Shown here piece after piece: positions 20,509 through 41,439 of a stretch of DNA of 64,000 nucleotides (its first letter is position 1; each line of letters starts with the position of its first letter). The notes under the pieces were generated by a model. That model saw only the letters and a list, made by a program, of their open reading frames with translations. It was not told the DNA's origin and did not search any database. The stretch is taken from positions 1,031,029 through 1,095,028 of the forward strand of contig CAWIMD010000002.1 in the NCBI GenBank assembly GCA_963837165.1. The letters are read 5' to 3'. The position numbers and the translations under genes were made by a program. The DNA is from Vicinamibacteria bacterium (lineage in GTDB: Bacteria; Acidobacteriota; Vicinamibacteria; Vicinamibacterales; JAENWD01).

Positions 20509-20620
20509 GGGAGATGCAAGAAGGCAGCCCGGCGTTCCGCGTCAGGAGCGCCCATCTCCCTCGCAGGACTGCATCTGGGGCAGACGAATCCGCGTCTCAG
20601 CTCACGAAAACGGTTGCCCG

Positions 20621-20665
20621 GAACCGTGGACATGTGAACCCGTGAACCCGAGAACCCGTGAACCT
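20621..20665 (-). repeat. Family E array (GGTTCACG/GGTTCTCG, about 5 units, read on the minus strand)
   Basis: The minus strand reads TAG ACG AGGTTCACGGGTTCTCGGGTTCACGGGTTCAC..., directly after the sulfite reductase stop. Confidence 0.9.
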
Positions 20666-20668
20666 CGT

Positions 20669-22515: not shown

Positions 22516-22521
22516 GGCAAA

Positions 22522-23298: not shown

Positions 23299-23876
23299 GC
23301 GGTCACCTCCTCGGTGCGCGCCGCATACAGCCCGTTGATCGCGGCCAGCAGCAGCGGGCGCCGCTCGTGCATGGGCACGCCGTCGGCACGCCACGTGCGG
23401 CGCAATCGCTCGGCCAGTTGCCTCCACTGGTCGAGGTCGTCCGGCAGCAGCGCCTCGAGGCCCTGCCGCACCAGGCCGGCCAGCGCCGGCGCACGGCCAT
23501 CGGTGGAGATGGCCACGACGACGCCGCTCTTCCGGACGACGCCGCCCAGGTAGGCCGACGCGTTTGCGGGATCGTCCACGGCATTGACGAACAGCCGCCG
23601 CTTCGCCGCTTCCCCGGCTACCTGCCGGTTGACGTCCGGCGACGCCGCCGCCACCACGAACCAGGCCTCGTCGAGATCCGCGGGCACGAACCCCCGTCGC
23701 TCGATCCGGACGCCGGCGTCGACGATCTCGCGCACGACGTCGGGCGCGACGACGACGACCTCGGCGTGCGCGGCGAGCAGCGCGCCAATCTTGGAGGCGG
23801 CCACCGGCCCACCGCCGACGACGGTCACGCGGCGGCCGTCCAGCTTCAGAAATGCCGGGAACAGATCGGTGGCCAT
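23295..23876 (-). CDS. Precorrin-2 dehydrogenase / sirohydrochlorin ferrochelatase (siroheme synthase N-terminal domain type)
   Basis: RVTVVGGGPVAASK Rossmann motif and FVNAVDDP. ATG 23876 shares 1 nt with the sat/cysC stop. The stop overlaps the cobA ATG. Confidence 0.8.
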   Translation of the reverse strand: MATDLFPAFLKLDGRRVTVVGGGPVAASKIGALLAAHAEVVVVAPDVVREIVDAGVRIERRGFVPADLDEAWFVVAAASPDVNRQVAGEAAKRRLFVNAVDDPANASAYLGGVVRKSGVVVAISTDGRAPALAGLVRQGLEALLPDDLDQWRQLAERLRRTWRADGVPMHERRPLLLAAINGLYAARTEEVTA

Positions 23877-25684
23877 CAGCGTCCCAGGGCGGCAACCGAC
23901 GCGCCGCTCGCGGCGAGCGGTGACGCGTCCACCAGGCCGCGGCTGGCGAGCGCCGCGACGATCCGGTCCAGGCTCTCTTCGACCGACTCGCGATCGGTCC
24001 GCACGACCACGTCCGGCCGGTCCGGCGGCTCGTACGGATCCGACACGCCGGTGAAGTTCGCCAGCTCGCCGGCCAGGGCCTTCTTGTAGAGCCCCTTCAC
24101 GTCGCGGGCCGCGAGGGCGTCGATGGCCGCGTCCGCGTGCACCTCCACGAAGGGCACGCCGTCACGATCGGCAGCGGCCCGGATCTCGTCGCGCGTGGCC
24201 GCGTAGGGCGAGATGGCGGCGCCAATCGCCACCGCACCGTTTCGCGCCAGCAGCCGCGCGACGAACCCGATGCGCCGGATGTTCGTGTCGCGATCCTCCT
24301 TCGAGAAGCCCAGCCCCTTCGACAGGTGGGTCCGCACCTCGTCGCCGTCGAGAATCTCGACGGGACGCGACGAGCCGAGCCGCGACCGCAGGGCCTCGGC
24401 CAGGGTGCTCTTGCCCGCGCCGGACAGGCCGGTGAACCACACGATGTACCCGCCGCGGGCGTTCCGTGGCGCGGGTGGGGCCGACGGCGCGGAGCCGGTC
24501 GCAGGGGCCGCTGCCGGCTGCTCGCCGGCAGTCCCGACGTAGTGCGCGCGCAGGATCTCGGCGACCTCCGGCCGCGTGAACTCCGGCGGCAGGTGTCCTC
24601 CGGCGCGGAGGATCTCACGCACTCTGGTGCCCGACAGCTCGAGACGGCTCGCGGCGTCGTGCGGGCAGCTCTTCGTCGACGCCAGCGTGCCGCAGGCCCG
24701 GCAAAAGAAGGTCGGATCGAGCTTCAGCGGCGCGACGCCGAGCTCCTCCGCTGTGAACTGATCGAAAATCCGCTGCGCCGCCAGCGGCTCGTAGTATTTC
24801 CCGACGCCGGCGTGGTCGCGCCCGACGATGAGGTGGGTGATGCCGTAGTTCTTGCGCACGAGCGCGTGGAAGAGCGCCTCGCGCGGGCCGGCGTAGCGCA
24901 TGGCGGCCGGGAAGGCGGCAAGCAGCGTGCGGTCGCGCGGGTAGTACCGCTCGAGCAGGGCCTGGTAGGCCTGAAACCGCACCGCGGCAGGCACGTCGTC
25001 CTGCTTCGTCTCGCCGACGAGCGGGTGAATGACGAGGCCGTCGGTGACCTCGAGCGCGACCTTGGTCAGGTGCTCGTGTGCGCGGTGGATCGGGTTGCGT
25101 GTCTGGAAGCCGGCGACCGTGCGCCAGCCCAGCGCCTCGATCCTCGCGCGGAGCTCGCGCGGCGACAGGCGATAGGCGGCAAACGGCCGATCCTCGCCGA
25201 GCGGCAGGACCTTCACCGGACCGCCCACCAGCCGGGTCGGCCGCGCCAGCAGATAGGCGACCCCGGGATGCGCGGGGTCGTCAGTGCCGTACACGGCACG
25301 CGCCTCGGCCTTCGGGTCTCGCGTGAACACGTCGGTGACCGAGATCACGCCCCACCGGCGGCCCTCGCCGTCGACGAGCGCGCGCTCGTCGCCCGGTGTC
25401 ACAGATTCGCGTTCGTCCACGGCCAGCGTGAACGGCAGCGGCCAGACCGTTCCGTCGGCCAGGCGCATCCGCGTGAGCACCGAGGCATAGTCGGCCTCGC
25501 CAAGAAAGCCGGTCAGCGGGCTCGCGGCGCCGGTTGCGATGAGCTCCAGATCGGCCTGCTCGCGCGCGTCGAGATGGAAGACCGGCAGCGTCGCCGCCAG
25601 CGCGTCGAGGGCGGGCGCCTCGGCGGCAGGAACGATGCGGTCCACCAGCGTGCCGCCATGGGGTCGTACGGTCGAGACGCTCAC
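23876..25684 (-). CDS. Bifunctional sulfate adenylyltransferase / adenylylsulfate kinase
   Basis: ATP sulfurylase motifs [13 protein letters not shown] and GRDHAG. C-terminal APS kinase P-loop [12 protein letters not shown] 25684 overlaps the cysH stop (GTGA). Confidence 0.9.
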
Positions 25685-26397
25685 ACTCGCTCTCCTTGTT
25701 CGTGAAGGGTCACGGGCGGCAGGTGCAGCCCGCACTCGCGCTTCTCGTGGCCGCGCCAGCGGCCGGCTCTCGGGTCCTCGCCCTCGGCCACGCGCGTCGT
25801 GCACGGCCAGCAGCCGATGCTGGGGTACCCGTCGTCATGGAGTGGATTGTACGGAATTGCGTTGGCGCGAAGGAACCGCCAGACGTCGCCGCTGGTCCAG
25901 CGGACCAGCGGATTCACCTTCAGCAGGTCGTGCTTCCGGCTCCACTCGACCACCGGTGCGGTCGCGCGTTCGGCCGTCTGGTCGCGCCGGATGGCCGTGA
26001 TCCACGCGTCGGCGCCCTCGAGCGCCCGTCCGAGCGGCTCCACCTTCCTCAGCCCGCAGCAGCGATCGGGGTCGCGCGACCAGAGCGCCGCGCCGTGCAC
26101 GGCGGCCTGCGCGTCCACGGTCTGTCGGGGGCGCACCGCTTCGATGGCGATGCCGTAGCGGTCTTCGAGCCGCCGCGAGAGCGCGTACGTCTCGTCGAAC
26201 AGCAGACCCGTGTCGAGCGTGAAGACGTGAATCGGCAGCCGCGCCGACGCGATGAAATGGACGAGCACGCAGCCCTCGGCGCCAAATCCGGTGCCGAACA
26301 CGACGCGCCCGTGCTCACGCGCCGCCCACGCCAGGATGCGCTCGGCCGGCCACCCCTCCATGCCCGCGGCGAGCTCGCGAATCCCGTCGCGGCTCAC
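25681..26397 (-). CDS. cysH: Phosphoadenosine/adenosine phosphosulfate reductase (Fe-S type Cys pairs)
   Basis: [10 protein letters not shown] and SIGCWPCT motifs. GTG 26397 overlaps the TauE stop (GTGA). Confidence 0.9.
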
Positions 26398-27146
26398 CGC
26401 TGCCCTCCGGCCAGCTGCAGGCCCACCGCGACCAGCGTGGCGGCCAGGCATCCGCGCAGCACGCGCTGCGGCATGACCGTCGCCAGGTTGGCCCCGACGA
26501 TCACGCCGGGAACGGCGCCGACGAGCACGTTTGCCGTGAGCGCGAGATCCACGCGGCCGGCCATGTAGTGGCCCAGGCCGGCGACCAGCGAGAGGATCAG
26601 CGCGTGCAGCAGGTCGGTGCCGACCATCGTCGACGCGCCCAGCGGGAACCAGAGCACGAGGGCCGCCATGAGCAGCGACCCGCTGCCGACGCTGGTCATG
26701 GCCAGCAACAGGCCGATCGCGAAGCCGATTCCGGCAGTCGCGGCGCGACTCGGCATCGGCGGGACCGGCCTGACAGGCCGTACGAGGTGAAACACCGTCA
26801 CGACGCCGACCACGATGAGGGTGGCGCCAAGCGCCTGCCGGAGCAGGTGGTCGATGGCGTCTTGCGGAATCAGCGATAACAGGAAGAGCCCCAGGACGAC
26901 GCCCGGCACCGATCCGGCCGCCAGGCGGCGTACCACCGTCCAGTCCACGGCGCCGCGGGCCACGTAGAAGCCGCCCCCGACCATCTTCACGACGGCCGCG
27001 ATGAGCACGTCGGAGCCCACGGCCACGCGCGCAGGCACGCCGAGCACGAGCACGAGCGCCGGCGTCAGGAGCGACGCGCCGCCCGTCGAGGTCAGCCCCA
27101 CGACGAGGCCGACGAACGAGCCGAGGATTGCCGTGGTCAGATCCAC
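26394..27146 (-). CDS. Sulfite exporter TauE/SafE family membrane protein
   Basis: Multi-TM protein with paired TauE-like halves (GLTSTGGASLL..., MTSVGSGSLL...). GTG 27146 is preceded by GAGGAGG. The ORF track start at 27221 is an alternative. Confidence 0.78.
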   Translation of the reverse strand: MDLTTAILGSFVGLVVGLTSTGGASLLTPALVLVLGVPARVAVGSDVLIAAVVKMVGGGFYVARGAVDWTVVRRLAAGSVPGVVLGLFLLSLIPQDAIDHLLRQALGATLIVVGVVTVFHLVRPVRPVPPMPSRAATAGIGFAIGLLLAMTSVGSGSLLMAALVLWFPLGASTMVGTDLLHALILSLVAGLGHYMAGRVDLALTANVLVGAVPGVIVGANLATVMPQRVLRGCLAATLVAVGLQLAGGQR

Positions 27147-27249
27147 GGGGCCTCCTCGGGACGGGCACGCGAGAGGTTCGGGCGGTGCGGCGACGACATC
27201 GGCAATCTCCAGACAGACCATCGGGGCCGCACCGGAATGGGGCGGCCCG

Positions 27250-27288
27250 GAAACGGAAAAGGCCCGGAAGGTTCAAGCCTCCCGGGCC
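27250..27288 (-). terminator. Intrinsic-terminator-like hairpin plus U-tract in the leader of the sulfate-assimilation operon
   Basis: The minus strand reads GGCCCGGGAGG-CTTGAA-CCTTCCGGGCC (10 of 11 bp) followed by TTTTCCGTTT. It lies about 100 nt upstream of the TauE start. Confidence 0.5.
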
Positions 27289-27426
27289 TTCAGGTCGTCT
27301 GCGTGTGCCGGTGTGTCAGCGTGTGGCTGTCCGGCGCGGGCGAAGACCTGCGGCGCGGGGGCCCTTCCGGGCCTCGCGACAACAACAACAGGTCATGCGC
27401 ATCCGCGTGGTCATGGAATCTGGCGT

Positions 27427-27449
27427 GTAGCGCGGCCCTTCAGGGCCGC
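27427..27449 (+). repeat. REP-like element b: GTAG-C-[GCGGCCC TTCA GGGCCGC]
   Basis: Perfect 7-bp stem, TTCA loop and a 5' GTAG. Same architecture as 19052-19074 but with a different stem sequence. Confidence 0.8.
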
Positions 27450-27585
27450 AAAATTCCCCACCAGTAGACGACGGGACGGGGCCGGCTGTCAACCACGGCC
27501 GTGGGGCATGACGGTAATGCGTGGAACAGATGGGAGCCGGGGAATGGGGCGGCGGCTCGCTCGCGATGAGCGGCGGGTCCGTGGT

Positions 27586-28614
27586 ATGAGAGGAACACGG
27601 TGCCCCGCCAGCCATATCGGAGTCCCCGTGCTTCAGCATCTTGCACGCGCGGTCATTGGCGCGAGTGTCATTGGACTGCCCGTCTCCGTGGTGTGCCAGC
27701 AGCCGGTGTTTCGCGGCACGGGCGATGCCGTTCGCGTCTTCGTCACGGTCACGGACCACGACGGCCGGCTCGTCACCACGCTCAGCCGCGATGACTTCGA
27801 GGTCCGCGACGAGGGCAAGCCGCAGCCACTCACGATCTTCGACAACAGGGCTCAGCCGATCCGTCTGATCGTCCTGCTCGACGTCTCGGGGAGCATGGCA
27901 GGCAATCTGCCCCTGCTCCGCGCGGCGGCTGGGCAGCTCGTCGCGCGGCTGGATCCGCTCGATCGCGCGCGCATCGGCAGCTTCGGGCGTGCGGTCACGA
28001 TCGGCCCGGCGTTCACGCGCGACGCCGACGAGCTCGAGCGCGCGCTGCCCGAGACGATCGAGCCCGACGCGCCGACGCCGCTCTGGCGCGCCGTGGACGA
28101 GGCCCTGAAGGCCTTCGACGCCGCCGACCCGGCACGGCGGGTCATTCTGGTGCTGAGTGACGGCAAGGATAGCGGTCCCGTCAGCTTCCGCCAGCGGTGG
28201 GTGAGCCCGGCCGAGATCATCGACAGCGCGCGAAACGCCGATGTGATGATCTACGGCATCGGCATGCGCAGCCGTCCGCTCGAGCCGCGCATGCCGGGGA
28301 TCGGCGCGGCCGGCCTGCAGGCGATGCTGACCGCCGACCTCCCCGATCCGGGCCTGGCGCGCGTGGCGGAGGAGAGCGGCGGCGGATACCTCGAAATCCG
28401 TTTCGGGCAGGATCTGGGCGCCGCCTTCAGTGCGGTGGTCGAGGAGCTGCACGGCCAGTATCTGCTGGGATTCGCGCCGCCGAGACGCGACGGCAAGGTG
28501 CACAAGATCGAGGTGCGCGTGGCCCGTCGCGGAGCCAAGCCGCGCGCGAGGAAGACCTACACCGCGCCCTCGGACAAGGCTGAACCAAGAACGCCGGACT
28601 CCCGATTCCCCTAG
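27586..28614 (+). CDS. VWA domain protein (acidobacterial VWFA-related type)
   Basis: FRGTGDAVRVFVTVTD...FEVRDEGKPQ N-terminal module. MIDAS motif LLDVSGSM. ATG 27586, with an alternative GTG at 27628. Confidence 0.72.
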   Translation: MRGTRCPASHIGVPVLQHLARAVIGASVIGLPVSVVCQQPVFRGTGDAVRVFVTVTDHDGRLVTTLSRDDFEVRDEGKPQPLTIFDNRAQPIRLIVLLDVSGSMAGNLPLLRAAAGQLVARLDPLDRARIGSFGRAVTIGPAFTRDADELERALPETIEPDAPTPLWRAVDEALKAFDAADPARRVILVLSDGKDSGPVSFRQRWVSPAEIIDSARNADVMIYGIGMRSRPLEPRMPGIGAAGLQAMLTADLPDPGLARVAEESGGGYLEIRFGQDLGAAFSAVVEELHGQYLLGFAPPRRDGKVHKIEVRVARRGAKPRARKTYTAPSDKAEPRTPDSRFP

Positions 28615-28639
28615 GCCGACGAGGGTTGACCGGCGGCGT

Positions 28640-29086
28640 CTACGCTTCGATCACGGCCAGTGACTCGGCGGAGGCGCCAAGCACCGCCGCAACCGGAATC
28701 GTCCGGTCGAACGTCGCCAGGCAGCCCTGCCTCGACGTGGCGAGCCCGAGCAGGTAGATATCGGTCACCTGGCGGTGTCCTGCCAGGAACTGCGGCGCGA
28801 ACAGCCGCTCGTCGGCGAGCGACGCGGCGGCAGGCCAGAACTCGTGGTGACCGCTGGCGCAGAACTTCCGCAGCGCTCCCATCAGCACGACGGGCCGCCG
28901 ATCCGTCAGACCGTACGCCGGGTTCGAGAGCACGCGCACGAAGCCGTTCTCCGTGACCGGACACGTGGCCCAGCCGGCCGACCGTGCGTCAGCGAACCAG
29001 TCGTGCGCCAGCTCGTGATGGACGTGGTCCGGGTCGAACAGCGCCACGAGGACGTTCACGTCGAGCAACGCGACGCGGCCGCCCAC
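28640..29086 (-). CDS. vapC: PIN-domain toxin, VapC family
   Basis: LLDVNVLVALFDPDH... with conserved acidic residues of the PIN fold. GTG 29086, 4 nt after the antitoxin stop. Confidence 0.78.
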   Translation of the reverse strand: MGGRVALLDVNVLVALFDPDHVHHELAHDWFADARSAGWATCPVTENGFVRVLSNPAYGLTDRRPVVLMGALRKFCASGHHEFWPAAASLADERLFAPQFLAGHRQVTDIYLLGLATSRQGCLATFDRTIPVAAVLGASAESLAVIEA

Positions 29087-29425: not shown

Positions 29426-30808
29426 ATGCTCTCCCGCCGCCGATTTCTGGCCACGCTGGCCGCGTCGCTGACCGCAGGCCGCGGCGCGCTCCATGCCGGT
29501 CCGCGCTCCCCGGCGTGGCACACGCCCGTTCCCGAGGCGGGCTGGGGGTACGGACAGGCGTTCGGCCTGGCCGTACGCCAGAACCGCCGCCTCCCCGAGG
29601 GGCTGCCACCCTCGCTGCCGAGAGCGGTCCCGCGGCTGCCGCCGCTGGACGCCGCGCAGACCGGCCGGCTCCTGCGCGCCCGGTTCCCCGATCTGAAACA
29701 GCGATTCCTGTTCGAGTACTACCCGTGGTACGGCAACAACCCCTGGCGGCACTGGAACCAGTGGGACCGCGTCCCTCCGTACGACCTGGCGGTGACGTCC
29801 GTGCCGGCTCTCGGCCCGTACGATTCCCGCGACCCCGCCGTCGTCGAACGGCACGCCCGCTGGATCGCGGAGGCCGGCGTCGGGGGCGTGAACATCAGCT
29901 GGTGGGGCCGTGGGAGCTGGGAAGACCTCGCGACGCCGCTCGTGATGGACGTCATGCGCGATCACGGCCTCAAGGTGGCGTTCCACCTCGAGCCGTACAA
30001 CGATTCGCGCACCGAAAACTACGCCGGCGACATCCAGTACCTGCTGCGTGAGTACGGCGACAAGCGGCGGTGGGACTGCTTCCTGCTCCTGCGGGACGCC
30101 GGCGGCAGGGAAGTGCCGGTCTTCAAGTCGTTCGCGACCCTGCTGCCACAGACCTCGACCGACTGTCACGGCGTCACGTCCCGTGTGGCGCTCTGGCGTC
30201 CCGACGGAACGTGGCGCCGTCAGACGGACACGGTACGCGACACGTTCCGAGGCGACTTCGACCGGATCTACCTGCTCGCCGACTCCGGCGCGCTGGACCA
30301 CGTCCAGGTCTGCGGCTTCGACGGCATCGCGATGTACGACAGCTTTCTCAGACCGACGCGGTGGCCGGATCTGGCAAAGGCCTGCCGCGACTTCCACCTC
30401 GTGTACTCGTTCAACATCAACTCGGGATTCGACGGCATCGCCCAGCGCAACGTGCCGGCGGACTCCTGTTATCGGCCGACCCCGTTCGAGCCGCCGGCCA
30501 ACCTCGATTTCACCGATCCGGACCAGCGGGAGCTGGCGCGCCGGCTGTCGGAACACCGCATGGAGGAATCGTTCCGGGCCACGCTGATCGTGCAGACCGA
30601 CCCGGCGCTGACCGACACCGGCGACGGCTTCTTCCTCGTCTACATCAACTCGTTCAACGAGTGGCACGAGGGCACGGCGATGGAGCCGGCGCGCGATCAC
30701 GCGGCGCTGCTGCCGCAGGAGTCGCCGTACGGCTACCACAACGCCGCCCAGGGCAACTACCGGCTGGCGTACCTCACCGAACGGCTGGGCGAACTGCTCG
30801 CCGGTTAA
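29426..30808 (+). CDS. Glycoside hydrolase family 99-like (endo-alpha-mannosidase-like), Tat signal
   Basis: Twin-arginine signal MLSRRRFLATL. Motifs FEYYPWYG, ISWWGRG and NSFNEWHEGT resemble GH99. Confidence 0.62.
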   Translation: MLSRRRFLATLAASLTAGRGALHAGPRSPAWHTPVPEAGWGYGQAFGLAVRQNRRLPEGLPPSLPRAVPRLPPLDAAQTGRLLRARFPDLKQRFLFEYYPWYGNNPWRHWNQWDRVPPYDLAVTSVPALGPYDSRDPAVVERHARWIAEAGVGGVNISWWGRGSWEDLATPLVMDVMRDHGLKVAFHLEPYNDSRTENYAGDIQYLLREYGDKRRWDCFLLLRDAGGREVPVFKSFATLLPQTSTDCHGVTSRVALWRPDGTWRRQTDTVRDTFRGDFDRIYLLADSGALDHVQVCGFDGIAMYDSFLRPTRWPDLAKACRDFHLVYSFNINSGFDGIAQRNVPADSCYRPTPFEPPANLDFTDPDQRELARRLSEHRMEESFRATLIVQTDPALTDTGDGFFLVYINSFNEWHEGTAMEPARDHAALLPQESPYGYHNAAQGNYRLAYLTERLGELLAG

Positions 30809-30925
30809 TCCCCAGCCCCCCAGATCCCCAGATCCCCAGCCCCCCAGATCCCCAGATCCCCAGATCCCCAGATCCCCAGATCCCCAGATCCCCAGATCCC
30901 CAGATCCCCAGATCCCCAGATCCCC
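30809..30925 (-). repeat. Family B octamer array (12 x AGATCCCC plus 2 x AGCCCCCC on the plus strand; GGGGATCT on the minus strand)
   Basis: Read directly. Spans the entire spacer between the GH99 TAA (30806-30808) and the amidohydrolase TAG (30925-30927). Confidence 0.97.
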
Positions 30926-32241
30926 TAGTTCGTTCCGACGTCCTTCCCCCCGCGCTTGTAGATGACCCCGCCCTTCATGACGAACGCGGGGTGCTCGAGG
31001 ATGGCGATGTTCGCGAGGGGATCCCCGTCCACCGCGACCAGGTCGGCGAAGCGGCCGGCCTGCACCGAGCCCACGCGATCGCTCCAGCCGAGCAGGTCCG
31101 CCGCCCAGGTCGTCGCCGCCTCGATGGCCTCGGTCGGCGTCATGCCCCACTCGACCATCTTGGCGAACTGCTTGCCGTTGTCGCCGTGCGGGTAGACGCC
31201 GGCGTCGGTGCCGTAGGCCATCTTCACGCCCGCCTTCCACGCCTTCCGGAAGTTCTCGCGCTGCGTCCGTCCGACCCTGCGCTCCTTCTCGAGGATCTTG
31301 TCGGGGTACCCGCGCTTCTTGTACTCCGTCATGATGTAGTCGTCGTTGTAGATGTCCATCACGAGGTAGGTGCCGTGCTCCTTCGCGAGCCGGATGCCCT
31401 CGTCATCGATGAAGGAGGCGTGCTCGACCGAATCGACGCCGGCCTTGATGGCGCGCTTGATGCCTTCGGCGCCGTGGGCGTGGGCCGCCACCCTGCGGCC
31501 CCACATATGGGCTTCCTCGACGAGCGCGTCGAGCTCTTCCTGCGAGTACTGCGGCGCGCCTTCCGAGTCCTCCTCCGACAGCACGCCCGCCGTGGCGAGC
31601 ACCTTGATCACGTCGGCGCCCTGCTTGATGTTCGTGCGCACGAGCTTGCGGATCTCGTCCACACCGTCGGCGATGCCGCTGAACGTCTTGAACATCACGT
31701 ACGGCGAGTAGCCGTTCAGGTCGCCGTGGCCGCCGGTCGCGCTGATCGCGAACCCCGAGACACGCATTCGCGGCCCGGGAATGTCGCCGCGCTCGATCGC
31801 GTTTCTGAGCGCGATGTCCACGTACTCGCCGGCACCCACGTTCCGGATCGTGGTGAAACCGGCCTCGAGCGTCCGCCGCGCGTAAAGGTGCGCCAGGATC
31901 GCGCTGTCGATCGGGCTGCGCTTGAAGAGGTCTTCGTAGAAGTTGTCGCCGGGCTGCCCGGTGACGTGCGTGTGGCAGTCGATGAAGCCCGGCAGCAGCG
32001 TGGCGCCGCCCAGGTCGATCACCTCCGCACCCGCCGGAACGGCCAGCCCGGAGCCCACGGCCGCAATCCGATCGTTTTCGACGATCACGACCGCATTCGC
32101 GGCCGGCGCGCCGCCCGAGCCGTCGAGCAGCCGCGCCGCCTTCACCGCGATCACGTGCGGCGCGGGGGCCTGTCCGTGGCCGACCGCCACCGCCCACAGC
32201 ACCGCCACCGCAATTACACATGCCCGACGCCACATCTGCAT
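30925..32241 (-). CDS. Amidohydrolase family metallo-hydrolase, secreted
   Basis: GFIDCHTHV metal-binding motif and a signal peptide after MQMWRRACV (ATG 32241). The ORF track start at 32268 lies in repeat I. Confidence 0.8.
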   Translation of the reverse strand: MQMWRRACVIAVAVLWAVAVGHGQAPAPHVIAVKAARLLDGSGGAPAANAVVIVENDRIAAVGSGLAVPAGAEVIDLGGATLLPGFIDCHTHVTGQPGDNFYEDLFKRSPIDSAILAHLYARRTLEAGFTTIRNVGAGEYVDIALRNAIERGDIPGPRMRVSGFAISATGGHGDLNGYSPYVMFKTFSGIADGVDEIRKLVRTNIKQGADVIKVLATAGVLSEEDSEGAPQYSQEELDALVEEAHMWGRRVAAHAHGAEGIKRAIKAGVDSVEHASFIDDEGIRLAKEHGTYLVMDIYNDDYIMTEYKKRGYPDKILEKERRVGRTQRENFRKAWKAGVKMAYGTDAGVYPHGDNGKQFAKMVEWGMTPTEAIEAATTWAADLLGWSDRVGSVQAGRFADLVAVDGDPLANIAILEHPAFVMKGGVIYKRGGKDVGTN

Positions 32242-32260
32242 GGATGGTCCCTGTAAGTTG

Positions 32261-32288
32261 TCAGTCATCAGTCTTCAGTTGTCAGTCC
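32261..32288 (+). repeat. Family I heptamer array (TCAGTCN x4)
   Basis: Reads TCAGTCA TCAGTCT TCAGTTG TCAGTCC. Confidence 0.8.
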
Positions 32289-32320
32289 CCAGCCTCGAGC
32301 TTCGACGTCGCGTCTTCGGT

Positions 32321-32360
32321 AGAACCGAGAACCGTGAACCGTGAACCGAGAACCGAGAAT
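32321..32360 (-). repeat. Family E heptamer array (GGTTCTC/GGTTCAC, about 5 units, read on the minus strand)
   Basis: The minus strand reads TAG ATTCTCGGTTCTCGGTTCACGGTTCACGGTTCTCGGTTCT, directly after the stop at 32361-32363. Confidence 0.9.
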
Positions 32361-33962
32361 CTACCGGTTCCGATAAACGACCGCCCGCCACACCTCCACT
32401 CGAGTGCCCGTGGAGTGCGGGTTGGCCGCGCCCGCCGTCACGATCTTCACGGTGTGCATGCCGGGCTTCAGCCCGTAGACGTGCCAGAGCGCGTCATCGT
32501 GGGTGCGCTCGGGGATCCAGCTGTCGATGGGCCTGGCGGCCTTGCCGTCGAGCAGGACGTCCGCGCGGCCCCCCTGCTGCGACAAGCCGCCCAGCAGCGT
32601 CGCCGCTGTGCCGGTGAACGTGAACGTGACCTCCGCGCCGGCGGCATCCGTCGAGAACCCGACCCCCCGTGCGCCGTCCCTCCCCGGACCGATCGGTTCC
32701 CAGCCGCGCCCCCACTGCCAGGCGGGCCGATCGGCGGGCACGACCTCGGTGGGCACGCCCATGTCCCACTGTTCGAGCGCCGGCGGCTTCGCGGTCTGCG
32801 CCGGGATGACGAGCGCGTCCTGCTCGACCCGGCCGCCCGCCAGTCGCACGACCTGCTCGGCCCGCTTCATCGTGGACGAGACGATGTCGTCGAAGGAGTA
32901 GTCGGTGTAGGAGAACTTCTTCCCGGCGAGCGCGGGGATGCCGGCCTTCCACTGGTCCGGGATCCGGTCGTAGCCCAGCATGACGCCCAGGATGCCTGCC
33001 GCGCTCGACGGGTTGCAGTCCGAGTCCTGGCCGGATCGGGTCGCGACGTCCAGCGTCCGGTCGAAGTCTCCGCCCCCGTACAGCAGGCCGAGGGCCACGT
33101 ATCCCCCGTTCAGCTTCGCGTCGATGTTGAAGGGCTCGAGCGACCCGTCCGGGCACGCGTCGTTCCTGTCCCACGTGTCCTCGAGCAGCTGCCACGTCGC
33201 CTTCCAGTCGTCGGGGTGTGCGTCGTGCCAGGCCAGCACGTCGCGGATCACCGCCGCGTACTGGCTGCCCGTCGGCAACGCGGCCAGGCCCGCCTCGACC
33301 ACCCGGTGCGGGTCGGTCTCGAAGAAGGCCGCGGCGTACATGCCGGTGATGAAGAGGCCGCCGTACAGACCGTCGCCGGAGTTCATCACGCGTCCGACGC
33401 GCAGGCAGTAGTCACGCGCCGCCCGGGGAAGCCCTGGCGTCATCAGGCCGATGAAGTCCGACTCGATCTGGAAGTCGATGTCGTTGGCGTGCGGGTTGTA
33501 CCCCGGCTCGCCGGACCGCGGCGCCTCGATCCCCAGGTTCAGCAGCCGTCGGGCGCCGGCGTTGGCGTGCCAGAGGTTGTACTGGGACGTTCGGAACGCC
33601 TCGCCGTACTGCGCCGTCGTGGCATCGAGGCCGAGGCGGTCCATCACGGCCGCGAACGTCATCTCGACGTAGAGATCGTCCTGGTCGATGGCGTTGCCGA
33701 CGTGATCGGGCTGCCACCTCGGCAGCGGGCCTTCGATGATCCGGCCGTTGGAGTGGAACTCGGTCGGGGCGCCGAACGAGACGCCGATCATCTGTCCGGC
33801 CCAGCCGCCGCGCACCCGGTCCTCGAACTCGGCTCTCGACAGCCGCCGCTCGGTCCCCGCGGCGCGCCCGGCCGGGCCCGACGTGAGCACGAGTCCCAGG
33901 GTCAGGACCGCCAGCGCGACCGGCCGGAAACAGCGTGACATGCGGTGAGTTTGTACCCGCAC
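32361..33962 (-). CDS. ADP-ribosylglycohydrolase family protein, secreted, with a C-terminal beta-sandwich extension
   Basis: GGWAGQMIGVSFG...DDLYVEM...SGQDSDCNPSSAAGILG motifs of the ARH/DraG fold. Signal peptide present. Confidence 0.78.
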   Translation of the reverse strand: MRVQTHRMSRCFRPVALAVLTLGLVLTSGPAGRAAGTERRLSRAEFEDRVRGGWAGQMIGVSFGAPTEFHSNGRIIEGPLPRWQPDHVGNAIDQDDLYVEMTFAAVMDRLGLDATTAQYGEAFRTSQYNLWHANAGARRLLNLGIEAPRSGEPGYNPHANDIDFQIESDFIGLMTPGLPRAARDYCLRVGRVMNSGDGLYGGLFITGMYAAAFFETDPHRVVEAGLAALPTGSQYAAVIRDVLAWHDAHPDDWKATWQLLEDTWDRNDACPDGSLEPFNIDAKLNGGYVALGLLYGGGDFDRTLDVATRSGQDSDCNPSSAAGILGVMLGYDRIPDQWKAGIPALAGKKFSYTDYSFDDIVSSTMKRAEQVVRLAGGRVEQDALVIPAQTAKPPALEQWDMGVPTEVVPADRPAWQWGRGWEPIGPGRDGARGVGFSTDAAGAEVTFTFTGTAATLLGGLSQQGGRADVLLDGKAARPIDSWIPERTHDDALWHVYGLKPGMHTVKIVTAGAANPHSTGTRVEVWRAVVYRNR

Positions 33963-34042
33963 GCTGGCCGAGAGTCAAACCCTCGAGTTTCTGCCGCCGC
34001 TGTGGCAGACCTCCAGAATCGCCGTTTCACGAACACGTGACA

Positions 34043-34056
34043 TTCCGGGCCCGGAA
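34043..34056. promoter_or_regulatory. Perfect 14-bp palindrome TTCCGGGCCCGGAA
   Basis: Read directly. Lies in the divergent region between the ARH gene and the LacI-family gene. Confidence 0.35.
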
Positions 34057-34083
34057 ATGAGTGGAACCCACTGACTGACAGCG

Positions 34084-34097
34084 GGAAACGCGTTACA
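34084..34097. promoter_or_regulatory. Candidate LacI-family operator GGAAACG|CGTTACA
   Basis: Imperfect palindrome resembling the TGNAANCGNTTNCA class. Lies just upstream of the regulator ORF. Confidence 0.35.
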
Positions 34098-34102
34098 GGG
34101 AA

Positions 34103-35224
34103 TTGACCGCGGTACAAGTAACCGATTACGATCTGGGCGCCGTGACGGACGAGTTCCGCAACTTCGGCGCCCCGACGCCCGGGCGCCCACGCGAGGTGGC
34201 CAGCGCTCCCACGATTCGGCAGGTGGCCGCCATGGCGGGCGTGTCCACGGCCACGGTCTCTCGAGTGCTGGCGCGGTCCGGCCGGGTGAGCCCCGATCTC
34301 GAAGCCCGCGTCCGGAGCGCCGCAAAGTCGCTCAACTACCAGCCCAATCGCGCCGCGCGCACCCTGCGCGCGCGCCAGGGCTCGACGGTCGGCGTCCTCA
34401 TTCCCGACATCCAGAACCTGTTCTTCACCGCCATCGTGCGCGGCATCGACGACGAGGTGCAGAAGCACGGGTACACGGTGCTGCTGGCCAACTCCGACGG
34501 CTCGCTCGAGCGCGAGCGCGTCTACCTCGATACGTTCCGCGCGGAAGGCGCGGCGGGCCTGCTGGTGATCCCCTCGCAGAACGACGAGCGCATCTACCGC
34601 GAGTTCCTGCAGACCGGCGTGCCGCTGGTGGTGCTCGATCGCACGGTGCACCTGCCCAACGTCGACCTCGTGTCGGTCACCAACAGCGAAGGATCCGCGC
34701 AGGCGGTCACGCACCTCGCCTCCCTCGGTCACCGGCGCATTGCGATGGTGGCGGGCCTGGAGTCGCACAACGTCGGGCGCGAACGGCGGGTCGGTTTCCT
34801 GGTGGGCCTCGAGTCGGCCGGAGTTCCCCTCGACCCGGCCCTGATCCGCGATGGTGGCTTCGAGCGCGAGCGTGCCCGTGTCGCCACGCACGAACTGCTC
34901 GGGCTGCCGGATCCCCCGACGGCAATCTTCAGCGCGAACAACACCATGTCGCTCGGCGTCCTGCAGGCGATCCACGAACGCGGCCTGCGGTCGCCGGAGG
35001 ACGTGTCGGTCGTGGGCTTCGACGACATGCCCTGGCAGGTGGCCACACAGCCGCCGCTCACGTGCATCTCGCAGCCGACCTACGACATCGGCGCGACGGC
35101 GGCACGGCTCCTGATCGCGCGCATCGGCGACCCCGACCGGCCCGTCCGGCGCGTGGTGCTCGAGACCGCCCTCGTCGTGCGCGGGTCGTCCGGGCCGCCG
35201 CCCCGCCGGAGCTCGGCCGCATGA
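34103..35224 (+). CDS. LacI family transcriptional regulator
   Basis: HTH TIRQVAAMAGVSTATVSRVL plus a periplasmic-binding-protein-like effector domain. The start is uncertain (TTG 34103 or GTG 34196). Confidence 0.85.
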   Translation: MTAVQVTDYDLGAVTDEFRNFGAPTPGRPREVASAPTIRQVAAMAGVSTATVSRVLARSGRVSPDLEARVRSAAKSLNYQPNRAARTLRARQGSTVGVLIPDIQNLFFTAIVRGIDDEVQKHGYTVLLANSDGSLERERVYLDTFRAEGAAGLLVIPSQNDERIYREFLQTGVPLVVLDRTVHLPNVDLVSVTNSEGSAQAVTHLASLGHRRIAMVAGLESHNVGRERRVGFLVGLESAGVPLDPALIRDGGFERERARVATHELLGLPDPPTAIFSANNTMSLGVLQAIHERGLRSPEDVSVVGFDDMPWQVATQPPLTCISQPTYDIGATAARLLIARIGDPDRPVRRVVLETALVVRGSSGPPPRRSSAA

Positions 35225-36309
35225 GGCACATCTCCCGCCGGGCCGCCCTCGTCGTCATCACGCTGTCGCTGCTGAGCGCGTGTTCCAGCGGCCGTCCCGA
35301 TCGTCCCGTGGTCGCGCTGGTCATGAAGTCGCTCGCCAACGAGTTCTTCAAGACGATGGAGGATGGGGCCAGGGCGCACCAGGCCGCCCATGCGGCGGAC
35401 TACGAGCTGGTGGCGACGGGCATCAAGGACGAGCAGGACGTCGCGCGCCAGATTGCAATCGTCGAGCAGATGATCGCGCGGGGCGTGGATGCCATCGTCC
35501 TCGCCCCGGCCGATTCGAAGGCCCTGGTCGGGGTGGTCAAGAAGGCGCTCGACGCCGGCATCGTCGTCGTGAACATCGACAACCGGCTCGACCGCGACGC
35601 GATGGTCGAGCGCGGCATCTCGGTCCCCTTCGTGGGCCCCGACAACCGGAAGGGCGCCCACGCGGTGGGCGCGTACGTGGCGAAGCGCCTGAAGCCCGGC
35701 GATCCGGTGGCCATCATCGAGGGCGCTCCCAACGCGTTCAACGGCGAACAGCGCCGCCTCGGGTTCGGCGAGGCCGCACGCGAGGCCGGTCTCGTCGTGG
35801 TCCGATCGCAGACGGCCTACTGGGAAACCGCGCGGGCCCACCAGGTGGTGACCGCCCTCATCAGTGAACGTCCTGACGTGAAGGCCATCCTCTGTGCGAA
35901 CGACAACATGGCTCTCGGCGCAGTGGCGGCGCTCAAGGCGGCGGGCAGGAGCGGTCAGGTGCTGGTCGCCGGCTTCGACAACATCTCCGCCGTGCACGAC
36001 CTCGTCCAGAGCGGCGGCGTGGTCGCCACCGCCGACCAGCACGGCGATCGGCTCGCCGTGTACGGCATCGAGTACGCGCTGGCCGGCCTGCAGGCACGGG
36101 GCACCACCCGCCCCGATCGTGAGACGCCCGTCGACCTGATCACGCCGCAGAACACAAAGGACACAAAGGACACAAAGGACACAAAGGACACAAGGAAAAG
36201 GACACGAAGGACACGAAGGACACGAAGGACACGAAGACCCAGAACCCATAAACCCACAACCCCACAAGCCCACAAACCCACAAGCCCCACAAACCCACAA
36301 ACCCATTAA
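35221..36309 (+). CDS. Sugar ABC transporter substrate-binding lipoprotein (ribose-binding type)
   Basis: ATG 35221 overlaps the LacI stop (ATGA). Lipobox LLSACSS and an RbsB-like fold. The last ~55 codons (NTKDTKDTKD...TRRTRRTRR...KPTSPTNPQTH) are read-through of repeat arrays C1 and H. Confidence 0.82.
   Translation: MRHISRRAALVVITLSLLSACSSGRPDRPVVALVMKSLANEFFKTMEDGARAHQAAHAADYELVATGIKDEQDVARQIAIVEQMIARGVDAIVLAPADSKALVGVVKKALDAGIVVVNIDNRLDRDAMVERGISVPFVGPDNRKGAHAVGAYVAKRLKPGDPVAIIEGAPNAFNGEQRRLGFGEAAREAGLVVVRSQTAYWETARAHQVVTALISERPDVKAILCANDNMALGAVAALKAAGRSGQVLVAGFDNISAVHDLVQSGGVVATADQHGDRLAVYGIEYALAGLQARGTTRPDRETPVDLITPQNTKDTKDTKDTKDTRKRTRRTRRTRRTRRPRTHKPTTPQAHKPTSPTNPQTH
36152..36237 (+). 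repeat. Family C nonamer array (ACACAAAGG x4, degenerate junction, ACACGAAGG x4)
   Basis: Read directly. Confidence 0.95.
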
Positions 36310-36336
36310 CCAACAAACCCATACCCTCCCAGACCC
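36238..36336 (+). repeat. Family H array (CCCACAAN-type, about 11 units of 7-9 nt)
   Basis: Reads CCCAGAA CCCATAAA CCCACAAC CCCACAAG CCCACAAA CCCACAAG CCCCACAAA CCCACAAA CCCATTAAC ... Confidence 0.9.
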
Positions 36337-36340
36337 AGCG

Positions 36341-37291
36341 ATGCGAAGGAGAATCGCGACCGAGAGTGCCGGTCTCGTCGGCGTGCTCGTGCTGCTTGCC
36401 GCGGCCTTCGGCGTGCTCACCAGCCACTTCCTCTCCTGGACGACCGCGCGCGCGCTTGCGAATGAGGCGCCGGATCTTCTGCTGGTCGCGACCGGGATGA
36501 CGCTCGTCATCCTGACCGGAGGCATCGACCTCTCCGTGGGCTCGCTCCTGGCGCTGTCGGGCGCCGTGTTCGGGCAGCTGATTGCGCGGAGCGGAGCCGC
36601 GCTGCCCCTGGCGGTGGCTGGGGCAATTGTCACCGGCGCGGGCTGCGGCTGGCTGAACGGCTGGATCACCGTGCGCTGGCGGTTGCCGTCGTTTCTCGTG
36701 ACGCTTGCGATGCTCGAAATGGCGCGCGGCGCGGCCTACCTGGTGACCTCCTCGCAGACGGTGTACCTCGGCGCGCGCGTCGACGTCGTATCGGCGCCGC
36801 TCGTCGCCGGCCTCGGGCCGCCGGTGCTGGTGGCAGTGGCGGTCGTGGCGCTCGGCCAGTGGACGCTCGACCGGCTCGTGTTCGGGCGACAGGTCTTCGC
36901 GGTGGGCACCAACGAGGAATCGGCGAGGCTGGCGGGCATCTCGCCGGGCCGTATCCGCATTGCCGTGTTCACGCTGTCGGGCCTGCTGGCCGGTGCGGCG
37001 GCAGTCGTGCAGGCCGGGCGGCTCGCGGCGGCCGATCCGAACGCGGGCATGGGGTTCGAGCTCGAGGCGATCGCCGCCGTGGTCATCGGCGGGACGAGCC
37101 TGACGGGCGGCCGCGGCTCGGTCGTCGCATCCGCGCTGGGGGCGCTGGTCATCCTGGTCCTCGGAGCCGGCCTCGCGCAGATGGGAGTCGGGGAGCCGAC
37201 CCGGCGCCTGGTGACGGGCGCGGTGATCGTGTCGGCGGCTGTTACGGACTATTACCGGGGAGGATGGGGGCACAGGAGGATGGGAGGATAG
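36341..37291 (+). CDS. Sugar ABC transporter permease (RbsC type)
   Basis: 10-TM BPD-type permease (LTGGIDLSVGS, AVGTNEESARLAGI). The stop TAG 37289-37291 lies inside repeat D1. Confidence 0.85.
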   Translation: MRRRIATESAGLVGVLVLLAAAFGVLTSHFLSWTTARALANEAPDLLLVATGMTLVILTGGIDLSVGSLLALSGAVFGQLIARSGAALPLAVAGAIVTGAGCGWLNGWITVRWRLPSFLVTLAMLEMARGAAYLVTSSQTVYLGARVDVVSAPLVAGLGPPVLVAVAVVALGQWTLDRLVFGRQVFAVGTNEESARLAGISPGRIRIAVFTLSGLLAGAAAVVQAGRLAAADPNAGMGFELEAIAAVVIGGTSLTGGRGSVVASALGALVILVLGAGLAQMGVGEPTRRLVTGAVIVSAAVTDYYRGGWGHRRMGG

Positions 37292-37325
37292 GAGGATAGG
37301 AGGATGGGAGGATAGGAGGATGGGG
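37260..37325 (+). repeat. Family D octamer array (GAGGATGG / GAGGATAG, 8 units)
   Basis: Read directly. Contains the rbsC-type stop and the ribokinase ATG. Confidence 0.95.
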
Positions 37326-38252
37326 CCCGCCATCGTTGTCGTCGGCAGCCTGAACGCGGATCTGTGCGTGCGGGTCCCGCGTTTCCCCACGCCCGGTGAG
37401 ACGATCGCCGGGCACGGCTTCACGGTCGTCCCTGGCGGCAAGGGCGCGAACCAGGCCTGCGCTGCGGGACGACTCGGCGGCCGCGTGGCAATGGCCGGGC
37501 AGGTCGGCGGCGACGCGCAGGGCCGGATGCTGCGCGACTCGCTCCGGCGTGCGCACGTGGACGTGAGCCTGGTGTCGGTGGACGGCGACGAGCCAACCGG
37601 CGTGGCGGTGATCACGGTGGATGCGTGGGGCGAGAACGAGATCGTGCTGGCCCCGGGCGCCAACGCCACGTTCACGGCCGGGCGCCTCGAGGGGGCCGAA
37701 GCCGTGATCCGCGGCGCGCGGGTCGTGCTCCTGCAGCTCGAGATCCCCATGGACACGGTGCTCCGGGCCGCGGCGACGGCGCGCGCGGCCGGCGTGAGGG
37801 TCGTCCTCGACCCCGCCCCCGCCGTCCCGGTCTCCGACGAACTGCTGGGGCTGGCCGATATCGTGACCCCCAATGAGGGCGAGCTGGCGCGCCTGGTCGG
37901 CGCCGCAGCGCACGAGCATCTGCCGGAACCGGCGATCGACGCGCAGGCCCGTGCGCTCCTGGCCCGAGGCTGCGCCATCGTGATCGTGAAGATGGGCGCC
38001 CGCGGCGCCCGTCTCGTGACGGCAGACGACGCCCGGACGTGGCCGTCGTTCCCAGTCACGGCGGTGGACACGACCGCGGCCGGAGATGCCTTCAACGGCG
38101 CGCTCGCCGTCGCGCTCGCTGACGAGCGCGCCCTCGGCGACGCCATGCGGTTCGCGACCGCCGCAGGCGCGCTGTCGGTGACGCGCCACGGCGCCCAGCC
38201 TTCGATGCCAGCCAGAGCGGACGTCGAACGTCTCCTCGCCACCGCGCGGTAG
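37320..38252 (+). CDS. rbsK: Ribokinase
   Basis: VVGSLNADL, GGKGANQA and DTTAAGDAFNGAL motifs. Confidence 0.9.
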   Translation: MGPAIVVVGSLNADLCVRVPRFPTPGETIAGHGFTVVPGGKGANQACAAGRLGGRVAMAGQVGGDAQGRMLRDSLRRAHVDVSLVSVDGDEPTGVAVITVDAWGENEIVLAPGANATFTAGRLEGAEAVIRGARVVLLQLEIPMDTVLRAAATARAAGVRVVLDPAPAVPVSDELLGLADIVTPNEGELARLVGAAAHEHLPEPAIDAQARALLARGCAIVIVKMGARGARLVTADDARTWPSFPVTAVDTTAAGDAFNGALAVALADERALGDAMRFATAAGALSVTRHGAQPSMPARADVERLLATAR

Positions 38253-38256
38253 GCGT

Positions 38257-38300
38257 TCAATCGTCAATCGTCAATCGTCAATCATCAATCAATTACAATC
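38257..38300 (+). repeat. Family A heptamer array (TCAATCG x3, TCAATCA x2, degenerate tail)
   Basis: Read directly. Lies between the ribokinase TAG and the oxidoreductase ATG. Confidence 0.92.
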
Positions 38301-38305
38301 CCGGC

Positions 38306-39403
38306 ATGCCTGTTCGCGTCGCCCTGATCGGCACCGGCAAGGTCGCCCTCGCCAACCATCTTCCCGGCGTGCAGCTGGCGCGGGACGCCAGGCTCACGGC
38401 CCTCTGCGACCCGAACGAGGACGCCCTCGCCGAGGCCGTGCGCGTGAGCGGCGTGACCCGCACGTGGACCGATCCGCTGACCCTGCTCCGCGAGGCCGAG
38501 GTGGACGCCGTCATCATCGCCACGCCGAACCGCGTGCACCGCGACGTCGCGGTGGCCGCGGCCGAGAGCGGCCGCCACGTGCTCTGCGAGAAGCCGCTCG
38601 CGCTCAGCGTCGAGCAGGCGGAGGACATGCTGGCCGCCGCCGAGCACGCGCGCGTGCGGCACATGACGGCCTTCACGTACCGGTTCGTGCCCGCCATGCA
38701 GTACATGCGGCACCTCGTGCGCAGCGGTGCCGTCGGCCAGCCGTGGCACTTCCGCGCGCAGCGCTTCCAGGACTGGGGACGCCGGGCGCTCGGCTGGCGC
38801 CAGCGGCTCTCCGAGGCGGGGTCGGGTGAGGTGGGTGACATGCTCTCGCACCGGCTCGACTTCGCGCACTATCTGGTCGGCCCGATCGCCCGCGTGATGG
38901 CGCTCACGACACGGGTGTGGGAGACGCGGCTGGACGAGGTCGGCCACGAGCAGCCGGCCGACACCGAGGACTGGGTGGGCTGCCTCGCCGAGTTCGCCTC
39001 GGGGGTCACCGGCGTGCTCGAGAGCGTCAAGACCGCGGCCGGGTACGCCGGCGGCGTCACGAGCCGCGACTGGTGCGAAGTGAACGGCAGCGACGGCGCG
39101 GTCGTCTACGACCTGTCGCATCCGCTGCGCGTGCTCGTTGCGCGAAAGGGCGGCACCTACGAGCCGGTGGACGTTCCGACGGAGTTCCGCAAGATCGCGG
39201 GGTCGCCGCGGGATCCGGACGCCGACCCGTGGCAGGCCTTCCGCTACGACCAGGACTACGAGTTCGTCGATGCCATTCACGCCGGCCGGCCGTGCGCGCC
39301 CTCGTTTCTGGACGGCCTGCGCGTGCAGGAAGTGATGGCGGCCATCCTGCAGTCGGCGCGGGAGCACCGCGCGATCGCGATCGAGGGGCATGGGCGAGTC
39401 TGA
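38306..39403 (+). CDS. Gfo/Idh/MocA family oxidoreductase
   Basis: N-terminal Rossmann motif VALIGTGKVA and an EKP motif (HVLCEKPLA). Confidence 0.85.
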   Translation: MPVRVALIGTGKVALANHLPGVQLARDARLTALCDPNEDALAEAVRVSGVTRTWTDPLTLLREAEVDAVIIATPNRVHRDVAVAAAESGRHVLCEKPLALSVEQAEDMLAAAEHARVRHMTAFTYRFVPAMQYMRHLVRSGAVGQPWHFRAQRFQDWGRRALGWRQRLSEAGSGEVGDMLSHRLDFAHYLVGPIARVMALTTRVWETRLDEVGHEQPADTEDWVGCLAEFASGVTGVLESVKTAAGYAGGVTSRDWCEVNGSDGAVVYDLSHPLRVLVARKGGTYEPVDVPTEFRKIAGSPRDPDADPWQAFRYDQDYEFVDAIHAGRPCAPSFLDGLRVQEVMAAILQSAREHRAIAIEGHGRV

Positions 39404-41355: not shown

Positions 41356-41439
41356 CCCCTATCCTCCCATCCTCCCATCCTCCCATCCTCCCATCCTCCC
41401 ATCCTCCCATCCTCCTATCCTCCTATCCTCCCATCCTCC
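41356..41439 (-). repeat. Family D octamer array (TCCCATCC/TCCTATCC on the plus strand, about 10 units)
   Basis: Read directly. The minus strand reads GGAGGATGG... ending 4 nt before the remnant ATG. Confidence 0.95.

Follow-up and report, generated by a model that had tools for sequence, protein, structure and literature searches.

REP/BIME palindromes, which form hairpins, lie 3' of convergent genes as non-conserved fillers and can stabilise mRNA 3' ends. Among short tandem repeats, the long simple sequence repeats of Mrazek et al. (2007) are, in the summary given in PMC4679880, built from units of 5–11 nt, mostly heptamers, located mostly in non-coding DNA of free-living bacteria with large genomes, and ascribed to polymerase slippage rather than to a function. 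The GGGNATC repeats described by Rehm et al. (2015) in Xanthomonas (GGGAATC) and Nostoc (GGGGA(C/T)T) are intergenic, form G-quadruplexes (G4s) in vitro, vary between close relatives and are without an established function (PMC4692102). The TAACTGA heptamers of Beggiatoaceae and the short tandem heptamers of cyanobacteria are mostly present in 2–6 copies in 5' leaders, where a role in translation has been proposed (MacGregor 2015, PMC4679880). With respect to transcription termination, the rut criteria of RhoTermPredict describe a stretch of 78 nt with more C than G and regularly spaced C residues (PMC6407284).

The spacer studied here lies in a 64,000-nt stretch of DNA from a soil member of the Vicinamibacteria (Acidobacteriota) (hereafter the window; GC content 70.5%), whose closest genomes are Vicinamibacteria MAGs, with a best amino-acid identity of 85%. 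It separates two convergent genes: a GH99-like glycoside hydrolase gene on the + strand (29426–30808; Pfam PF16317 Glyco_hydro_99, 1.1e-25; with a gene call of 460 aa in the strain compared below) and an amidohydrolase gene on the − strand (30925–32241; Pfam PF01979 Amidohydro_1, 4e-58), which is called as a gene in L096 and represented in the protein collection by P0001 (438 aa, 100% identity). The TAA of the GH99-like gene (30806–30808) directly adjoins an octamer array, and the amidohydrolase TAG, on the complement of 30925–30927, has one base in common with it. Since both C-termini align to the ends of their orthologues, the stop codons are native and the array fills the spacer exactly.

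The array (30809–30925) comprises 5 + 112 = 117 nt: a TCCCC at 30809–30813, which is a 5-nt partial unit, is followed by 14 in-register octamers, 12 of the sequence AGATCCCC and 2 of the sequence AGCCCCCC. From 30814 onwards the order is AGCCCCCC, two AGATCCCC, AGCCCCCC and ten AGATCCCC, the last base being 30925. Its G-rich strand, (GGGGATCT)n, runs in the sense direction of the amidohydrolase gene. According to the original prediction, the whole spacer consists of 14 octamer units: the number of units and their position between the two stops stand, whereas the five nucleotides next to the GH99 stop are only part of a unit. The overlap of the amidohydrolase stop with the first GGGGATCT unit was found as described, the shared base being the G of the TAG, itself the reverse complement of 30925–30927. 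TRF gave a period of 8, 14.8 copies, 92% matches and a score of 208, and a two-unit probe (at most 2 mismatches) found 20 matches in the window versus 0.04 in shuffles. The array is thus a simple sequence repeat, with a short unit repeated head-to-tail well beyond chance.

A second array of the GGGGATCT family lies at 18932–19036, G-rich on the + strand, and begins 11 nt past the TAG that ends a glutamate dehydrogenase gene. All 20 matches of the two-unit probe are confined to the 30809 and 18932 arrays, and the GGGGGGCT/AGCCCCCC variant is found only there. The 18932 array carries a 24-nt pattern, GGGGATCT GGGGATCT GGGGGGCT, with a degenerate continuation at about 19096–19135; the 30809 array has this higher-order pattern in common with it, in a block (30814–30845) in which two AGCCCCCC variants, at 30814–30821 and 30838–30845, are 24 nt apart. 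Together the two arrays have 47 identical bases in common, among them a pair of GGGGGGCT variants spaced by exactly 24 nt, and from one strain to the other both change in length by steps of about 24 nt. Separate origins of an identical two-base variant with identical spacing are unlikely, so that these features support a relationship by common descent or gene conversion, as had been proposed from the variant units in the form of a shared ancestry or template. As a side observation, in the region 19040–19135, directly beyond the 18932 array, about 60 nt of unique sequence contain a stem-loop (GCAGGCC TTC AGGCCTGC, about 19057–19075); the degenerate repeat continuation after this stretch reads GGATCTGGGATCTGGGAGGTCTGGGGG, as if a hairpin-bearing segment lay within an older array.

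The likeness to the repeats of Rehm et al. is close in several respects: the GGGGATC core of GGGGATCT fits GGGNATC, the repeats are intergenic and go far over four G-tracts, their length and sequence vary between close relatives, and there are many loci per genome (PMC4692102). Moreover, the G-rich strand is the coding strand within at most 50 bp after a stop codon (the 30809 array overlaps the TAG; the 18932 array follows it closely). By analogy with the bias reported for GGGNATC repeats, this position of the G-rich strand right after the stop at both loci may point to a function. Unlike the heptameric GGGNATC repeats, GGGGATCT is an octamer with a period of 8; further differences are the acidobacterial host, the 14–17 units versus a preferred 4, the filling of a whole convergent spacer, and the fact that in the window the GGGGATCT family is one among several unrelated families and not the dominant one. 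With the TAACTGA and cyanobacterial heptamers, the arrays have in common that one family extends over many intergenic sites and that an identical unit occurs in unrelated phyla with no known spreading mechanism; unlike those heptamers, the 30809 array is situated at the 3' side of its two neighbouring genes and is much longer (PMC4679880). REP/BIME elements resemble it as non-conserved fillers 3' of convergent genes, but they are imperfect palindromes, whereas the 30809 array is made of tandem direct repeats capable of weak, register-degenerate GATC pairing only. Indeed, a stable stem-loop of about 20–40 nt, as in a REP/BIME-type palindrome, was not found in the array, which offers only GATC-based helices of 4–6 bp.

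The original prediction had proposed a comparison of copy number among isolates. This comparison, run on two strains, was positive. The second strain (ENA ERZ25039539 contig_13815, found via the amidohydrolase, with the remainder covered by loci L097–L100; 56 kb compared) is 99.29% identical to the window over 7.3 kb. Its orthologous spacer measures 141 nt versus 117 nt in the window and consists of TCCCC plus 17 units versus 14, with 5 AGCCCCCC variants versus 2 and in a different order. The AT-to-CC switches between units always alter both bases jointly, which suggests whole-unit copying and not single-base mutation. All arrays occupy matching sites in both strains, and besides the 30809 array (+24 nt in the second strain) eight of them are of unequal length, the difference amounting to about a unit or more in seven. 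The second strain is longer at 18932 (+46 nt, about two extra 24-nt blocks), at the 24-mer array 14802 (+47 nt, about two more units), at 36243 (+13 nt), at 51596 (+7 nt) and at 53113 (+9 nt), and shorter at 15768 (−14 nt), at 36152 (−14 nt) and at 20634 (by about 17 nt, in a messy alignment that does not allow the change to be cleanly sized). Seven arrays, mostly short, are identical between the strains, the longer arrays being more variable. All but one of the indels of at least 4 nt fall within arrays, although arrays make up about 2% of the sequence. As read from the two assemblies, the overall pattern of length differences is classic VNTR behaviour.

Both assemblies are long-read assemblies with single-base indels typical of consensus errors, so that individual counts could be off and part of the copy-number difference could be assembly error. 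The same indels are what would speak for the array as a whole being an assembly artefact. This is exceedingly improbable: two different contigs carry an array of the identical unit at the identical site between intact flanking genes, all other arrays are also at matching sites, and similar arrays are present in many unrelated public contigs. With regard to the rest of the alignment, the tract 19036–28901 differs from L100 at 225 positions over about 10 kb, versus about 20–50 in each of the other segments (about 0.3–0.5%), which suggests a recombined or more divergent tract. The sulfate-assimilation genes of this tract show split gene calls and many single-base indels in the second strain.

Copy-number polymorphism between near-identical strains is also what one would see at a contingency locus, in which the number of units switches or tunes the expression of a neighbouring gene in a manner resembling phase variation, and other arrays of the window do lie directly upstream of start codons (e.g. 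the Shine-Dalgarno-like GGGAGGAT arrays at 37258 and 41361). For the 30809 array, we consider such a role very unlikely, as the array follows both genes at their 3' ends and lies in no promoter, ribosome-binding site or reading frame. Furthermore, both neighbours are ordinary metabolic enzymes, and Rehm et al. saw no link of such repeats to surface or adaptive genes (PMC4692102).

The 30809 array has many counterparts in the window. TRF detected about 20 arrays with units of 7–9 bp, nearly all at gene boundaries. On the codon-usage gene map of the window, from which the intergenic and spacer counts derive, arrays account for 1,099 of 6,285 intergenic nt (about 17%) and are present in 14 of 56 spacers (10/40 co-directional, 3/8 convergent and 1/8 divergent). 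Besides that at 30809, several of these spacers are wholly array, and several arrays take up the space between co-directional, probably co-transcribed genes. A few unit families recur: TCAATCG at three loci (15768, 38257 and 51596), GGTTCAC at four (40975 and 42122, and reversed at 32321 and 20634), GGGAGGAT at two (37258, and reversed at 41361) and GGGGATCT at 18932 and, reversed, at 30809; CACGAAGGG-like units are found at 36152, 42693, 53113 and 60231. Being one among about 20 similar arrays of unrelated units, the 30809 array is no special device of its spacer, and is best read as a member of a genome-wide population of 7–9 bp arrays in this Vicinamibacteria lineage.

This population is similar to the repeats of Mrazek et al. 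in having units of 7–9 nt with heptamers the commonest (the heptamer is the most frequent unit across 98 arrays in about 100 loci), in being mostly non-coding and phylogenetically scattered, and in being explained by slippage; units that are multiples of three are likewise tolerated within coding sequence, the cases in the window being the 24-mer at 14802 and the 9-mer at 36152. It differs from them, as far as the summary in PMC4679880 goes, in that Acidobacteriota are not named there among the repeat-rich genomes, and in that the arrays account for about 17% of the window's intergenic sequence and re-use their units at several loci.

The 30809 array offers 12 GATC sites at a spacing of 8 bp and could in principle act as a DNA binding platform, its GATC sites being recognised by a methylase, a restriction-modification system or a nucleoid- or repeat-binding protein, and its units recurring because a protein recognises them. 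The re-use of unit families within genomes and the recurrence of GGGGATCT across unrelated contigs are in line with such a role. It is nevertheless highly improbable, because GATC is neither avoided nor enriched outside arrays (observed/expected 0.90, i.e. near expectation), most other unit families of the window are without GATC, and no candidate binding protein was identified. Any explanation specific to GATC was rejected on the first two of these grounds. CRISPR, mobile-element ends and structured RNA were dropped as candidates as well: there are no unique spacers, no common flanks among the arrays of any one family and no Rfam match. Independently of this, CTAG is strongly avoided window-wide when GATC-containing arrays are masked (5 observed versus 31 expected).

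Several other arrays of the window have features of their own. The GGGAGGAT arrays at 37258–37324 and 41361–41439 (8–10 units, sense strand) lie immediately 5' of the start codons of a PfkB kinase gene (start 37320) and of a small minus-strand gene (start 41352). Every GGGAGGAT unit holds a Shine-Dalgarno-like GGAGG, and as the PfkB ATG is within the last unit, the ribosome-binding site is provided by the array. At 36152–36321, two arrays of about 10 units each, one with a 9-bp unit (ACACAAAGG/ACACGAAGG) and one with an 8-bp unit (AACCCACA), prolong the ORF 35221–36309; the resulting tail (NTKDTKDTKDTK...RTRRTRRTRR...) is absent in the orthologues, whose alignment ends near residue 308–311 of 362. 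The 24-bp array at 14802–14905 is inside a response-regulator gene and encodes (DSAQGRPG)n. TCAATCG units occupy three co-directional spacers (15768–15821, 38257–38290 and 51596–51664) in both orientations relative to transcription, and an inverted pair of this family is present in the second strain just past the end of the window (contig_34619, 23715–23799). Finally, the convergent spacer 42119–42248 combines a GGTTCAC array, a perfect 8-bp stem-loop (GGCCGAAC TGAA GTTCGGCC, about 42165–42185) and a CCTGATC array.

The orthologous spacer was then followed in relatives, the gene block 29426–39403 being syntenic in Vicinamibacteria loci L001–L007. In L001, the closest relative examined, the convergent pair is separated by 10 nt (TGA GTCGCGCCGC TCA) and there is no array. 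In L002 the spacer is 116 nt long and holds three stem-loops, and in L003 it measures about 59 nt, the L003 stop having been read by eye, and contains an unrelated (GGGACGA)n array. One further relative has no usable spacer, its contig stopping 34 nt past the gene, and in another the gene downstream is a different one, with a canonical terminator behind it. Other array-bearing spacers nearby are 25–185 nt shorter and array-free in relatives. A 10-nt spacer in L001, hairpins in L002 and another unit in L003 indicate that the 30809 array is young, lineage-specific and dispensable for the gene pair. In addition, removal of all full units from the window spacer leaves TAA-TCCCC-TAG, a collapse that fits growth from an originally tiny spacer. 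As for the L002 stem-loops themselves (7294–7409), they read GGCCGCAC TTTA GTGCGGCC, GCCCGAGC TTTA GCTCGGGC and GCCCAAGC TAAA GCTTGGGC; the three are similar to one another and look like members of a REP-type dispersed palindrome family.

Because its copy number shifts between near-identical strains and it is absent in L001, the array behaves as an ordinary fast-evolving microsatellite and not as a dedicated terminator. We therefore consider it likely that the 30809 spacer is a hypervariable intergenic octamer microsatellite, shaped by slippage and unequal exchange, bounded by the two stops, related to the sister array and young. An octamer seed would have been copied into, or would have arisen in, an originally tiny spacer, and may derive from a sister array via ectopic recombination or gene conversion. 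This seed would then have expanded by replication slippage and unequal exchange, often in 24-nt blocks, helped by slipped hairpins based on GATC or by G-quadruplexes in the displaced strand. The exact fit of the array to the spacer would result from selection on the two coding ends, which fixes the boundaries. Two observations go against a purely undirected process, as slippage of this kind does not predict that a few unit families are re-used within the genome or that GGGGATCT is found in 15 unrelated contigs.

The original prediction had implied that the lack of a hairpin in the spacer is significant. Neither the consensus scan nor the folds revealed, for either strand of the 30809 array, a G+C-rich stem leading into a U tract. 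The consensus scan for intrinsic terminators returned 0 terminator-like sites in 26–36 kb and, over positions 1–60000 of the window, 8 matches versus about 15 in shuffles, all within predicted coding regions and none at gene ends. As hairpin-plus-U terminators are lacking at all gene ends scanned in these 60 kb, their lack at 30809 is unremarkable. Moreover, 3 of the 8 convergent pairs in the window are at most 4 nt apart or overlapping, and in L001 the two genes are separated by 10 nt, so that the implied significance was not borne out. Canonical intrinsic terminators do exist in the class: a related Vicinamibacteria contig (L102, about 4030–4070) has a textbook hairpin-plus-T-tract terminator, GGCCCGGGAGG..CCTTCCGGGCC TTTTTCGTTT, even though none was found at gene ends in the window.

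The more specific statement that the spacer has no inverted repeat is right in that a hairpin-plus-U structure is missing on both strands, but the palindrome GATC recurs unit after unit, and GGAUCU is able to pair with itself (with G-U pairs). For the G-rich RNA, a long interrupted hairpin is predicted, with 6-bp helices split by G/G loops; its MFE of −63.9 kcal/mol is not lower than expected from shuffles (z = −0.59), in a model (ViennaRNA) that ignores quadruplexes. The C-rich RNA is predicted to form just 4-bp GAUC helices that are lost in the centroid fold, leaving the array unstructured, and both strands as single-stranded DNA show weak, register-degenerate GATC self-pairing. A search of the whole window against Rfam gave no match at the gathering score, the lone match with E<1 being a chance miRNA.

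The array is skewed in composition, in opposite ways on its two strands. On the amidohydrolase strand it forms a canonical G3+N1-7 quadruplex motif spanning 30810–30925, with at least four tracts of at least three G and short loops. The mean absolute G4Hunter score is 1.85 over 131 nt, exceeded only by the 18932 array (1.92), and these two arrays are the two strongest and longest G4-prone tracts of the window. At the level of sequence, this agrees with the expectation that the amidohydrolase transcript would carry a G4-prone (GGGGAUCU)n; likewise, the GH99 transcript would carry the C-rich complement, with 64 C and 14 G in 117 nt. The smoothed 78-nt C/G ratio of the + strand reaches 4.5 at 30809, the third highest value on that strand in the window after two other arrays. 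On paper, the + strand RNA would thus resemble a rut site, being at least 78 nt long, C-rich, G-poor, unstructured and with regularly spaced C (PMC6407284), with the differences that natural rut sites are not tandem repeats and that the opposite strand of the 30809 array is G-rich. Among public sequencing runs, the only one that shares words with the locus has 6% of them and is a DNA run; it yielded four short, divergent contig pieces, none reaching the 30809 array.

A rival reading takes the array as an insulator, kept by selection, that halts transcription from both sides of the convergent pair. The C-rich, G-poor and unstructured (AGAUCCCC)n would be a candidate Rho loading (rut) site on the GH99 mRNA; on the amidohydrolase side, both the non-template DNA strand and the RNA, being G-rich, would adopt G-quadruplexes, R-loops or an interrupted hairpin and thereby pause RNA polymerase or block 3' exonucleases. 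The C and G counts, the C/G ratio and the unstructured centroid fold of the C-strand fit the rut criteria (PMC6407284), and the G4Hunter mean is high. In relatives, the orthologous spacer contains hairpins (L002) or another repeat with G3 tracts (L003), and in Xanthomonas the starts or ends of transcripts fall on G4-capable repeats more frequently than on control ones (PMC4692102). We nonetheless consider a selected insulator doubtful. The 10-nt spacer of L001 and the window's closely abutting convergent pairs argue that a spacer element is not needed, other arrays of the window are without C/G skew, several of them fill the spacers of co-directional, probably co-transcribed genes, and both the order and the copy number of the units vary freely between strains. 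The idea that the arrays serve as terminators in general was rejected, given the inconsistent strand composition and the location of several arrays between co-directional genes.

One could go further and view the 7–9 bp arrays as sequence-specific, actively dispersing elements that insert beside stop codons and replace the REP-like hairpins of relatives, the GGGGATCT array being a tunable two-way insulator (a Rho loading site in one direction, a G4 or R-loop roadblock in the other) whose copy number sets read-through; this alternative appears to us distinctly unlikely. Under the preferred reading, that of a young, slippage-driven microsatellite, effects on RNA are plausible consequences of the array and not its reason for existing: the GH99 mRNA could acquire a C-rich, G-poor 3' tail on which Rho may load, and the amidohydrolase mRNA a 3' tail prone to form G4s or a hairpin.

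Arrays of this kind are not restricted to the window. A metagenome scan with (GGGGATCT)4 found 15 JGI contigs of 34–73% GC, none of which is the 30809 locus. They lie in varied settings (following a stop codon or a tRNA, within a 5' leader, or antisense) and gave no orientation rule. In L095 (415–530), a convergent pair has (GGGGATCT)n after one stop and two inverted units at the other. In L082 (7862–7925), (GGGGATCT)n is flanked by the 3' end of a tRNA and by a canonical terminator, and in L084 and L087 (34–35% GC), 24 GGGGATCT units are followed by a (CAATCYCT)n array. Short arrays with 7–9 bp units, often directly 3' of the orthologous amidohydrolase gene, were found in Terriglobia, Gemmatimonadota, Verrucomicrobiota and Lysobacterales loci, and re-use of a unit within one genome also occurs outside the window, e.g. 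ACTGGGG three times in L011. A literature search for tandem repeats in Vicinamibacter/Vicinamibacteria returned no paper.

Taken singly, the 30809 locus is of little weight, being a clean, well-bounded bacterial octamer microsatellite with direct strain-level instability, through which the GGGNATC type of G4-capable repeat is extended to Acidobacteriota. More is to be gained from the wider pattern: about one-sixth of the intergenic DNA of the window consists of short tandem repeats that belong to a small number of recurring unit families, and the spread of such families within a genome, together with their recurrence across phyla, is a long-standing question. In practical terms, 7–9 bp arrays can serve as strain markers and are known to lead to broken contigs and wrong gene calls when metagenomes are assembled. 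As a last observation, the 9-mer ACACGAAGG is tandemly repeated both in the window (60231–60257) and in L031 (7307–7334; Rhodanobacteraceae, Gammaproteobacteria), which may be a coincidence or may be a case of cross-phylum unit recurrence.
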